Assembly (NCBI GenBank): GCA_963776275.1
Contig: CAVZMI010000010.1
Coordinates: 1 to 62,482, forward strand
Direction: 5' to 3'
From: Ignavibacteriota bacterium
GTDB taxonomy: Bacteria; Bacteroidota; Ignavibacteria; UBA10030; CAVZMI01
Length of the DNA: 62,482 bases
Translations under genes and position numbers: made by a program
Shown here: positions 34,830-42,100 of the stretch, piece by piece
Position numbering within the stretch: position 1 is the stretch's first letter
Layout of the letters: every line of letters begins with the position of its first letter
Notes under the pieces: model-generated
Told to the model about the DNA's origin: nothing
The model's input: only the letters and a program-made list of their open reading frames with translations
Database searches by the model: none

Positions 34830-34960
34830 CTTGCCCTGCCCTAAAGTTTATCCTGAGCTTGTCGAAGTGGACTACTTCCGCCAAAAAGATGGCGGACAGG
34901 TCGTCGAGCGACCCGCCGCAGTCCGCCGGTGGCGGACGGTAGGCGGGGAGGCGAAGGGTT
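34830..34960. repeat. Nested REP-like palindrome cluster
   Basis: CCTGAGCTTGTCGAAG (34852), TCCGCCA..TGGCGGA (34877-34896), and TCCGCCGGTGGCGGA (34922-34936) inside CCCGCC/GGCGGG. Confidence 0.75.
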
Positions 34961-40473: not shown

Positions 40474-40552
40474 CGCGGGGTGGAGCCCCGACAAACAACG
40501 TCGGGATTTCGCCCTACCCAGACGGAGTCTGGGCAGGACTCAACAATTGGTA
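40474..40552 (+). pseudogene. 5' fragment of tRNA-fMet interrupted by a 58-nt double-hairpin insert
   Basis: CGCGGGGTGGAG + insert + CAATTGGTA, both flanks identical to nt 1-21 of the tRNA at 40586. Confidence 0.75.
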
Positions 40553-40585
40553 TTTAAGCTTATCAGCAAATAGAATTCTGTACAT

Positions 40586-40658
<73 letters not shown>

Positions 40659-40664
40659 CAAAAG

Positions 40665-40692
40665 AAGCCTCCCAGGTAAGGGGGGTTTTTTT
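40665..40692 (+). terminator. Terminator-like hairpin abutting the GIY-YIG start codon (repeated in each unit)
   Basis: AAGCCTCCC-AGGTAA-GGGGGGTTT stem, T7, then ATG. Confidence 0.6.
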
Positions 40693-40956
40693 ATGCCATT
40701 TTATACATATGTTCTAATCAGTGATGAAGGATATCACTACACTGGTCACACAGCTGATCTTGATCTCAGAGTCGAACGCCATTTCATGAAAACGACGCAC
40801 TATACTAAGAAGGGGAAAAACTGGCGTATTATTTATTCGAAAGAATTTTCAACAAGGGCAGAGGCCATGAAACATGAGAAGTGGCTCAAGAGTGGTGTCG
40901 GTAGAGAATGGGCGAAAGCAAACATCGCGGGGTGGAGTCCGCCGAAGGCGGAGTAG
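40693..40956 (+). CDS. Stand-alone GIY-YIG nuclease, copy 1
   Basis: YTYVL...YTG with Y6, Y16, G18, R26, H30 and E62 in the expected catalytic positions. Confidence 0.9.
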   Translation: MPFYTYVLISDEGYHYTGHTADLDLRVERHFMKTTHYTKKGKNWRIIYSKEFSTRAEAMKHEKWLKSGVGREWAKANIAGWSPPKAE

Positions 40957-41007
40957 CTCGTTGGGCTCATAACCCAAAGGTTGCAGGTTCAAGTCCTGCC
41001 CCCGCTA
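40926..41007 (+). pseudogene. tRNA-fMet copy 2 with a 15-nt hairpin in the D-loop
   Basis: CAATTG replaced by TCCGCCGAAGGCGGA (40938-40952); remainder identical to copy 1. Confidence 0.8.
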
Positions 41008-41041
41008 CAAAAGAAGCCTCCCAGGTAAGGGGGGTTTTTTT

Positions 41042-41305
41042 ATGCCATTTTATACATATGTTCTAATCAGTGATGAAGGATATCACTACACTGGTCACAC
41101 AGCTGATCTTGATCTCAGAGTCGAACGCCATTTCATGAAAACGACGCACTATACTAAGAAGGGGAAAAACTGGCGTATTATTTATTCGAAAGAATTTTCA
41201 ACAAGGGCAGAGGCCATGAAACATGAGAAGTGGCTCAAGAGTGGTGTCGGTAGAGAATGGGCGAAAGCAAACATCGCGGGGTGGAGTCCGCCGAAGGCGG
41301 AGTAG
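41042..41305 (+). CDS. GIY-YIG nuclease, copy 2
   Basis: Identical protein to copy 1. Confidence 0.9.
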   Translation: MPFYTYVLISDEGYHYTGHTADLDLRVERHFMKTTHYTKKGKNWRIIYSKEFSTRAEAMKHEKWLKSGVGREWAKANIAGWSPPKAE

Positions 41306-41356
41306 CTCGTTGGGCTCATAACCCAAAGGTTGCAGGTTCAAGTCCTGCCCCCGCTA
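41275..41356 (+). pseudogene. tRNA-fMet copy 3 with D-loop hairpin
   Basis: Identical to copy 2. Confidence 0.8.
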
Positions 41357-41390
41357 CAAAAGAAGCCTCCCAGGTAAGGGGGGTTTTTTT

Positions 41391-41654
41391 ATGCCATTTT
41401 ATACATATGTTCTAATCAGTGATGAAGGATATCACTACACTGGTCACACAGCTGATCTTGATCTCAGAGTCGAACGCCATTTCATGAAAACGACGCACTA
41501 TACTAAGAAGGGGAAAAACTGGCGTATTATTTATTCGAAAGAATTTTCAACAAGGGCAGAGGCCATGAAACATGAGAAGTGGCTCAAGAGTGGTGTCGGT
41601 AGAGAATGGGCGAAAGCAAACATCGCGGGGTGGTGTCCGCCGAAGGCGGAGTAG
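41391..41654 (+). CDS. GIY-YIG nuclease, copy 3 (S82C variant)
   Basis: Ends AGWCPPKAE. Confidence 0.9.
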   Translation: MPFYTYVLISDEGYHYTGHTADLDLRVERHFMKTTHYTKKGKNWRIIYSKEFSTRAEAMKHEKWLKSGVGREWAKANIAGWCPPKAE

Positions 41655-41705
41655 CTCGTTGGGCTCATAACCCAAAGGTTGCAGGTTCAAGTCCTGCCCC
41701 CGCTA
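41624..41705 (+). pseudogene. tRNA-fMet copy 4 with D-loop hairpin and A11T
   Basis: GGTG instead of GGAG at 41634 breaks a D-stem pair. Confidence 0.8.
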
Positions 41706-41739
41706 CAAAAGAAGCCTCCCAGGTAAGGGGGGTTTTTTT

Positions 41740-42003
41740 ATGCCATTTTATACATATGTTCTAATCAGTGATGAAGGATATCACTACACTGGTCACACAG
41801 CTGATCTTGATCTCAGAGTCGAACGCCATTTCATGAAAACGACGCACTATACTAAGAAGGGGAAAAACTGGCGTATTATTTATTCGAAAGAATTTTCAAC
41901 AAGGGCAGAGGCCATGAAACATGAGAAGTGGCTCAAGAGTGGTGTCGGTAGAGAATGGGCGAAAGCAAACATCGCGGGGTGGTGTCCGCCGAAGGCGGAG
42001 TAG
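41740..42003 (+). CDS. GIY-YIG nuclease, copy 4 (S82C variant)
   Basis: Identical to copy 3. Confidence 0.9.
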   Translation: MPFYTYVLISDEGYHYTGHTADLDLRVERHFMKTTHYTKKGKNWRIIYSKEFSTRAEAMKHEKWLKSGVGREWAKANIAGWCPPKAE

Positions 42004-42064
42004 CTCGTTGGGCTCATAACCCAAAGGTTGTATCCGCCGTAGGCGGAAAGTCCTGCCCCCGCTA
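41973..42064 (+). pseudogene. tRNA-fMet copy 5 with hairpins in both the D-loop and the T-arm
   Basis: TCCGCCGAAGGCGGA at 41985-41999 and TCCGCCGTAGGCGGA at 42033-42047 replacing GGTTC. Confidence 0.85.
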
Positions 42065-42070
42065 CAAACA

Positions 42071-42100
42071 GCCTCCTTGTATAGGAGGCCTTTTTATTTT
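42071..42100 (+). terminator. Intrinsic terminator closing the array
   Basis: GCCTCCT/AGGAGGC stem followed by CTTTTTATTTT. Confidence 0.8.

Follow-up and report, generated by a model that had tools for sequence, protein, structure and literature searches.

The locus described here lies in a 62,482-nt stretch of contig CAVZMI010000010.1, referred to below as the window. All coordinates are window positions, and all the listed features are on the + strand. An intact initiator-type tRNA-Met gene is followed by a 349-nt unit that is repeated in 4.1 copies with 99% matches. In each unit, a terminator-like hairpin with a run of seven T residues (T7) abuts the ATG of an 87-codon open reading frame (ORF), and the ORF runs into a copy of the tRNA carrying a hairpin in its D-loop. 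The features are as follows.

40474..40551, +, T0, orphan 5' fragment of the initiator tRNA (read from the sequence; by alignment, the block is also present in the sister genome)
40586..40659, +, T1, intact initiator-type tRNA-Met(CAT) (ARAGORN; Rfam tRNA, 66.5 bits; cloverleaf fold)
40668..40692, +, terminator-like hairpin and T7 run, abutting the ATG (terminator scan; repeated at 41017, 41366 and 41715)
40693..40956, +, GIY-YIG ORF 1, 87 aa (Pfam PF01541, PDB matches, AF2 model, codon-position pattern)
40926..41008, +, psi-T2, tRNA copy with TCCGCCGAAGGCGGA (40938-40952) in the D-loop (Rfam, 47.5 bits; fold)
41042..41305, +, GIY-YIG ORF 2, identical to ORF 1
41275..41357, +, psi-T3, structured as psi-T2
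41391..41654, +, GIY-YIG ORF 3, tail ...AGWCPPKAE
41624..41706, +, psi-T4, differing from psi-T2 by A to T at tRNA position 11
41740..42003, +, GIY-YIG ORF 4, tail ...AGWCPPKAE
41973..42065, +, psi-T5, terminal copy with a D-loop hairpin (41985-41999) and a second hairpin (Rfam, 20.9 bits)
42071..42098, +, native terminator behind the last copy (terminator scan; conserved in the sister genome)

No initiator-type tRNA other than T1 was found in the assembly. Among the three CAT tRNAs of the assembly, T1 alone has both the C1 mismatch and the GGG/CCC anticodon stem. Upstream of it, T0 consists of tRNA nt 1-12, about 57 nt with two GC hairpins and then tRNA nt 13-21 (CAATTGGTA). The CAATTGGTA remnant overlaps the -35-like hexamer of the sole promoter-like site before the tRNA (40547-40576). 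No promoter-like site was found between the intact tRNA and ORF 1; therefore, co-transcription of the two is likely. The terminator scan returned nine sites as compared with a mean of 2.0 in shuffled sequences.

The copies behind T1 depart from a functional tRNA. ARAGORN called a single gene in the array, the one at 40586, and none of the pseudo-copies. The Rfam score of 47.5 bits for pseudo-copies is obtained only through an alignment that skips the D-arm, and the 20.9 bits of psi-T5 fall below the gathering score of 29. A canonical cloverleaf with A14 and a G18-G19 D-loop was not found in the copies at 40926, 41275, 41624 and 41973. In psi-T5, the second hairpin, TATCCGCCGTAGGCGGAA (core 42033-42047), has the same stem as the D-loop hairpin and replaces 8 nt of the T-arm; this layout is common to the sister genome. 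We also considered a D-arm-less tRNA starting at 40947, with the 3' arm of the hairpin serving as the acceptor strand, as the Rfam alignment would have it, and rejected it, as RNA folding prefers the native acceptor stem plus the hairpin.

The ORF and the tRNA copy share nucleotides. The sequence CGCGGGGTGGAG (tRNA nt 1-12) begins at 40926 and is followed by TCCGCCGAAGGCGGA at 40938-40952 and then by GTAG, so that the last 31 nt of ORF 1 (40926-40956) are made up of these three elements. The TAG that ends ORF 1 (40954-40956) is the D-stem TAG of the tRNA copy. The translation of the ORF (40693-40956) ends in ...ANIAGWSPPKAE*, its residues 79-87 and the stop being supplied by the tRNA copy plus the hairpin; the ORF has no stop codon of its own. 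The same tRNA-derived ending is present in the three further ORFs (41042-41305, 41391-41654 and 41740-42003), with a single tail change, S to C, in ORFs 3 and 4. The description in an earlier note on this DNA, that the last 31 nt of each ORF are the 5' end of a hairpin-bearing tRNA copy with the TAG in the D-arm, thus proved exact for all four ORFs. The intact tRNA has CAATTG where the copies carry the 15-nt hairpin, a length difference of 9 nt. Translation bore out the note's further statements that the ORF frame carried into a native D-loop, as in the intact tRNA gene, would read IAGWSNW* with the same stop, and that the hairpin swap keeps the frame. An in-frame stop is by itself unremarkable, because two of the three frames entering the tRNA meet one within 15 codons.

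The nuclease and its C-terminal tail

ORF 1 codes for a protein of 87 aa with one Pfam domain, GIY-YIG (PF01541; residues 3-67, E-value 1.4e-12, 48.2 bits with a cut-off of 22.6); no NCBIfam family matched it significantly. In a phmmer search against the PDB, the closest solved relatives were the UPF0213 proteins 1zg2 (BH0048; E-value 1.2e-6) and 1ywl (EF2693; 5.2e-5). An AlphaFold (AF2) model built from 50 homologues (mean pLDDT 83.4) comprises the GIY-YIG core and a coil tail only. Foldseek ranks 1-12 for this model are occupied by 1zg2, At-HIGLE, Slx1 and 1ywl, with UvrC appearing at rank 41 (E-value 2.2). The closest relatives by both sequence and fold thus belong with Slx1 and UPF0213 and are not UvrC or homing endonucleases. 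In the 50 aligned homologues, Y6, G18, R26 and H30 show no variation, and the conservation of Y16 and E62 is at least 90%. The Tyr-Tyr-Arg-(His)-Glu catalytic set is present, the roles of the residues being assigned by analogy.

Across eight distinct loci, the mean pairwise identity at codon positions 1, 2 and 3 of the ORF body is 0.74, 0.83 and 0.43, respectively. This pattern indicates a translated gene under selection. Judging by its sequence, the ORF is a genuine gene under selection, and its product is a minimal single-domain GIY-YIG nuclease of the Slx1/UPF0213 lineage. In the model, the last predicted helix spans residues 68-77 and residues 78-87 form a coil, with a mean pLDDT of 53 for residues 81-87 and values below 50 for residues 85-87. 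The predicted folded domain (residues 1-77) therefore ends at the tRNA boundary.

The earlier note suggested a check, namely, whether homologues end in tRNA-derived peptides or usually stop before the tRNA. In a set of 58 proteins obtained by homologue search, 49 read into tRNA-derived sequence, so that stopping short of the tRNA is not the usual case in this clade. The tail W-(S/K)-(P/L)-P-x-(A/V)-E occurs in 37 of them, and two more have a hairpin longer by 9 nt and the same ending. Ten enter the tRNA-derived A-G-W/C and then diverge, and the remaining nine are truncated, distant or end earlier. The ending WSNW, expected from the native D-loop, was found in none of the 58. As far as these sequences show, a single tail class in 37 proteins and read-in to tRNA-derived sequence in 49 are beyond chance. 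The only residue that varies among the 37 tails is encoded by the hairpin loop (K in 28, Q in 5, E in 2, T in 1 and H in 1).

The conservation of the tail differs in kind from that of the body. In eight diverged loci, identity at positions 1, 2 and 3 of the 11 tail codons is 0.92, 0.98 and 0.94, and third positions are invariant in 9 of the 11 tail codons as against 6 of the 77 body codons. The 30-nt block GGTGGAG-TCCGCC-GAA-GGCGGA-GTAGCTCG is unchanged across the eight loci except for the loop. Since third positions in the tail are as conserved as first and second ones, it is the nucleic acid that is conserved and not the peptide. On the evidence of the alignments and the model, the tail appears to be a passenger peptide on a conserved nucleic-acid element. 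For the tRNA-derived parts of the tail, invariance could also come from gene conversion off the intact tRNA rather than from selection; this explanation does not apply to the hairpin itself.

Departures from the common tail follow the nucleotide sequence. A GTA loop creates an earlier stop at one locus (L025), whereas frame-shifting hairpin variants (L019, P0036 and P0041) run on to a TAA in the anticodon loop. In another case (L024/P0047) there is an early stop and no pseudo-tRNA. The D-loop TAG also terminates ORFs at pseudo-tRNA-Arg(ACG) (L030, L032 and L074) and at pseudo-tRNA-Ala(GGC) (L084). In more distant clades, the stop codon precedes the pseudo-tRNA or coincides with its edge (L027, L028, L029, L031, L035 and L064). 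Because two of the three frames would hit a stop anyway, the borrowed stop can be seen as a by-product of the abutting tRNA copy and not as a designed dependency.

These results go against the view that the gene is complete only next to its target. The Pfam match (residues 3-67) and the last predicted helix both precede the coil, the distant homologues manage with stops ahead of the tRNA, and conservation at all three codon positions suggests a constraint on DNA or RNA rather than on a peptide. That the tRNA is the nuclease's 'target' at all was an assumption of the earlier note. For annotation, this means that the C-terminal 9-40 residues of such proteins are tRNA/hairpin read-through and lie outside the protein fold.

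Cassettes and hairpins in other genomes

We examined loci from named genomes, metagenomes and relatives. In the usual layout, the ORF is preceded at a distance of 6-77 nt by an intact tRNA and followed by a pseudo-copy of that tRNA in which GC hairpins replace or interrupt the loops. In the close clade, the tRNA is the Met-initiator. In distant clades, it is Arg(ACG), Arg(CCT), Ser, Ala(GGC) or elongator Met, in records labeled Bacteroidota, Acidobacteria, Zixibacteria and Chlorobiaceae. An isolate, Ferruginibacter sp. SUN106, has three tandem 348-nt units with a related nuclease behind an elongator tRNA-Met (L028, 2180-3400), which makes it a possible culturable system. A full-text literature search returned no description of a bacterial GIY-YIG gene nested between a tRNA gene and its hairpin-bearing pseudo-copy.

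Further examples are present in the same genome. One paralogue (C20:153686-153988) takes its tail and TAA stop from the T-arm of a pseudo-tRNA-Pro plus a hairpin. Another (C21:75501-75830) is a pseudogene with an in-frame TAG, and its stop abuts an intact tRNA-Pro(GGG). A third (C37:20770-21054) precedes tRNA-Ser(GGA) by 140 nt. Behind tRNA-Thr, tRNA-Val and tRNA-Gly there are tandem arrays of partial tRNA copies (C5:59013-59650, C23:121170-121860 and C23:437362-437912) in which GC hairpins have replaced T- or anticodon loops and no nuclease ORF is present. Such arrays may represent cassettes that have decayed or are non-autonomous.

The distribution at the initiator tRNA is patchy. Among 29 related genomes from the same taxonomic order, five have the nuclease ORF beside the initiator tRNA; in four, the downstream DNA is unassembled. 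A hairpin-bearing 5' fragment upstream of the initiator tRNA was found in about 7 of the 29 and a second 3' end downstream in about 8, some of these sites being ORF-less. In four records (L039, L047, L057 and L065), the contig ends 2-190 nt past the initiator tRNA; such ends may reflect repeat arrays breaking assemblies. The sole syntenic relative belongs to the same genus, and its flanking proteins are 98% identical. It has one cassette versus four here; the D-loop hairpin of its pseudo-tRNA is a different one, and two compound hairpins are present in addition. An empty site in syntenic context was looked for and not found, as this same-genus genome is the only one to share the flanking genes and its site is occupied. 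Searches of phage and plasmid collections gave no matches at an E-value of 1e-5.

Comparison of the two sister genomes is informative about how the copies evolve. They differ by a G/A change in the T-stem (pair C-G vs T-A; window 40635/40649 and 42055; L052:1501-2019), and within each genome both the intact and the pseudo copy have the same variant. The 3'-strand change is present in the pseudo-copy even though no 5' strand is left there to pair with. The shared difference suggests gene conversion between copies. The internal copies of the array are the product expected if unequal exchange took place within the 31 nt (tRNA nt 19-49) that the copies have in common. An array formed by cleavage upstream of the hairpin and invasion of the intact tRNA would be predicted to have native D-loops internally, and all the internal copies carry the hairpin. 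Judged from the arrangement of the copies, unequal exchange fits the array better than cleavage and invasion.

The hairpin itself is a member of a larger family. The pattern TCCGCC-N(2-12)-GGCGGA occurs within -60 to +250 nt of the ORF end at 18 of 32 loci (one duplicate pair included), as compared with nine occurrences elsewhere in those loci over 123 kb; at the other 14 loci, the exact hairpin is absent near the ORF. In the genome studied here, it forms a genome-wide REP-like family with 33 copies versus one for a control pattern, and 11 of the 33 are no more than 600 nt away from a tRNA gene, as compared with 0.54 expected. Two intergenic hairpins with TCCGCC/GGCGGA stems are present in the window at 34877-34936, at a distance from tRNAs. 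Of 41 related genomes, 40 have the family in abundance (872 matches versus 100 for the control), and three genomes without a nuclease-profile match still have 7, 10 and 42 hairpins. Hairpin count and nuclease copy number give a rank correlation of rho 0.43 across the 41 related genomes, which are kin and not independent. We did not accept this correlation as evidence, as it is too weak for genomes so far from independent.

The loops of these hairpins are often GNA, and C-GNA-G forms a DNA mini-hairpin of very high stability. The TCCGCC/GGCGGA stem is also found in pseudo-tRNAs that have no ORF, at the positions of the D-, anticodon and T-loops. Compound hairpins occur inside the pseudo-tRNA of the sister genome (L052:1841-1960, identical to L019:3234-3353), and in one example a TCCGCC...GGCGGA stem encloses a TGTCATG...CATGAC stem. 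Such compound structures hint that new hairpins enter single-stranded loops.

Weighing the explanations

The explanation that we favor is that of a real minimal GIY-YIG gene residing in a tRNA/hairpin cassette, with the tail as a passenger and the stop codon as a by-product; we put its probability at about 0.68. The order of the cassette is the intact tRNA, the terminator, the nuclease gene and a pseudo-copy of the same tRNA with GC-rich hairpins in place of loops. Translation would pass the end of the fold (residue 77), read tRNA nt 1-12 and then the 15-nt hairpin, and end at the D-stem TAG. The unit under conservation is the nucleic-acid block GGTGGAG-TCCGCC-GNA-GGCGGA-GTAGCTCG.

A different role for the junction follows from the earlier note, which had expected RNase P processing of the tRNA copy to leave a nonstop mRNA. 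A cut at 40925/40926 would remove the stop codon, and tmRNA tagging would then keep the nuclease low, making the gene dependent on the tRNA. The lack of an own stop in the ORF, the tmRNA encoded by the genome and the likely co-transcription of tRNA and ORF are in line with this scheme. In addition, the copies at 40926, 41275 and 41624 keep a 6-bp acceptor stem and a T-arm in both the MFE and the centroid predictions, so that cleavage is conceivable at these three internal copies. However, the T-arm is intact in only 1 of the 10 single-copy pseudo-tRNAs of the clade (L020), and thus RNase P cleavage cannot be a general feature of the family; in the terminal copy and in the sister copy, a hairpin has taken the place of the T-arm. 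Moreover, the folded domain is complete ahead of the tRNA, and distant homologues carry their own stop. We regard the scheme as improbable for this locus, and non-stop decay as a general mechanism as unlikely. It might also be argued that the peptide AGWSPPKAE is functional in itself, for example, as a DNA-contacting or partner-binding motif, considering that the same peptide is present in 37 of the 58 homologues. Yet its third codon positions are conserved like the first and second, its sole variable residue falls in the hairpin loop, it is predicted to be disordered, and unrelated or truncated tails are found in L019, L024, L025, P0036, P0041 and P0047. A function of the peptide is therefore very improbable.

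The hairpin block might instead act in RNA, as a 3' stem-loop that stabilizes or terminates the mRNA or slows ribosomes, and be unrelated to nuclease recognition. The hairpin is stable in RNA folds and sits at the extreme 3' end of the ORF, and similar hairpins, some with T-runs, occur genome-wide and also in nuclease-less genomes. Nevertheless, what is invariant in the eight diverged loci is the sequence and not pairing alone, with no compensatory changes, and the stem also recurs in all three loop positions of pseudo-tRNAs that have no ORF. A separate terminator lies downstream as well. A role in RNA alone is thus not very probable, although we rate it slightly above the RNase P scheme. As to whether the four-copy array and the ORF/tRNA junctions could be mis-assembled in this MAG, the 349-nt repeats exceed typical short reads, which makes the copy number uncertain, and a peat run has only a single-cassette relative (a joint from 40934 to 42007 with 111 other letters). 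On the other hand, the junction between ORF and pseudo-tRNA is present in independent single-copy records (L020-L023, L025, L068, L070 and L072), and the unit exists in two sequence variants. A 160-nt contig from another run is identical to 40932-41091, which includes a junction found only in a tandem arrangement (one contig, depth 3.5), and L028 also has a tandem array. An artefact is the least credible of these alternatives, just behind a functional tail.

Relation to known systems and a possible mechanism

SegB of phage T4 is a multi-domain protein that cuts double-stranded DNA. Like the gene described here, it is a free-standing GIY-YIG gene among tRNA genes with a patchy distribution that points to a selfish element (PMC2330249). 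Unlike SegB, the protein studied here has 87 aa and no extra domain, and its gene is chromosomal, accompanied by a duplicated, hairpin-disrupted tRNA and devoid of phage or plasmid matches. The sporadic presence at one conserved site seen in Seg-like elements was found here (5 of the 29 related genomes), but the combination of a nuclease with a sequence-specific DNA-binding domain was not, there being no second domain in the 87 aa. Integrative elements, for their part, produce partial tRNA duplications and have att sites at tRNA 3' ends. Here too, partial direct repeats of a tRNA flank an insert and a functional tRNA is preserved; in contrast, the insert is only 0.35 kb with no integrase, both 5' and 3' fragments are duplicated, and hairpins stand in for loops. 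The REP/BIME elements with their RAYT transposases and the IS200/IS605 family combine clustered, multiplied GC-rich palindromes with a small nuclease gene for single-stranded DNA hairpins. Multiplied and clustered short GC-rich palindromes with an associated small nuclease gene are found here as well, except that the nuclease is a hydrolytic GIY-YIG enzyme and not an HUH tyrosine transposase, and the hairpins replace loops of tRNA copies. Both systems are also discussed in the main text of PMC11893778.

By sequence and fold, the protein is nearest to the bacterial Slx1-like/UPF0213 proteins, a minimal stand-alone GIY-YIG lineage (Dunin-Horkawicz et al. 2006, PMC1564403). UPF0213 members 1zg2 and 1ywl are its best matches, and typical UPF0213-like paralogues are also encoded in this genome. 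What sets the present clade apart is an EKWLKSGxGR C-terminal helix together with the tRNA/hairpin context; the Slx1-like/UPF0213 proteins are not known to be linked to tRNA genes or hairpins, other than through one TrmH fusion (PMC1564403).

By analogy, the biochemically closest known enzymes are the Ssn nucleases (Chenal et al., Nat Commun 2025, PMC11893778), a branch of minimal GIY-YIG proteins shown in 2025 to be hairpin-guided nucleases of single-stranded DNA. These single-domain enzymes of 94 aa are encoded by genes flanked by a hairpin repeat, which they bind as single-stranded DNA and cut a few nucleotides upstream (PMC11893778). The family corresponds to CDD cd10448 (GIY-YIG_unchar_3), and its hallmark is site-specific cleavage of single-stranded DNA next to the hairpin and inactivity on double-stranded DNA and on RNA. 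Both groups are single-domain GIY-YIG proteins of about 90 residues without a DNA-binding domain, and in both the gene is linked to a short GC-rich inverted repeat of a hairpin family multiplied in the genome. SsnA is killed by mutation at Y6, Y17 or E64 (PMC11893778), to which Y6, Y16 and E62 of the present protein correspond when matched by position, not by alignment. The differences concern the arrangement. The hairpin here is TCCGCC-N3-GGCGGA, on the 3' side only and inside the ORF, whereas the Ssn NTS flanks the gene on both sides, and the cassette here is nested between a tRNA gene and its pseudo-copy. The word tRNA is absent from the main text of PMC11893778; in the supplements searched, gene annotations are the one place where it appears. 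The published degenerate Ssn SRM pattern has no match in the 62-kb window and six genome-wide; in the first 1 Mb it has one match versus 3-8 in shuffled sequences, that is, it is not enriched.

With Ssn as a guide, the hairpin block could be a single-stranded DNA binding site for the encoded nuclease, and the two tRNA copies could serve as recombination arms. Such arms would account for tandem amplification, for gene conversion between the copies and for the patchy distribution. The putative site, consisting of tRNA nt 6-12, the TCCGCC-GNA-GGCGGA hairpin and the D-stem, would overlap the nuclease gene, so that neither gene nor site would be inherited without the other. The tRNA sequence on either side, which is near-universal, would provide portable homology arms, through which the same tRNA gene could be entered in any genome, making entry of the cassette independent of flanking genes. 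Hairpins would spread into the single-stranded loops of extruded tRNA-gene cloverleaves and into other hairpins, thereby disrupting the homology between repeats through which the cassette would otherwise be deleted. This joint reading, in which the block is the binding and cleavage site of its own nuclease and the cassette is a self-propagating, hairpin-spreading parasite of tRNA genes, is put forward tentatively, and we consider it somewhat doubtful. Unlike the NTS-ssnA-NTS arrangement, the hairpin is present on the 3' side only, the Ssn SRM pattern shows no enrichment, and hairpins are abundant also where there is no nuclease-profile match.

Minimal GIY-YIG proteins are among the commonest uncharacterized small bacterial genes. 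In the cassettes described here, such a gene and a hairpin share nucleotides inside a duplicated essential tRNA gene, and this layout is shared by several phyla and involves several tRNA species. Should the hairpin prove to be the site of the enzyme, the cassettes would represent a new kind of tRNA-gene parasite. They would then explain one source of pseudo-tRNAs, of repeats flanking tRNA genes and of contig breaks in metagenomes, and would offer naturally paired sets of nucleases and sites for single-stranded DNA tools.
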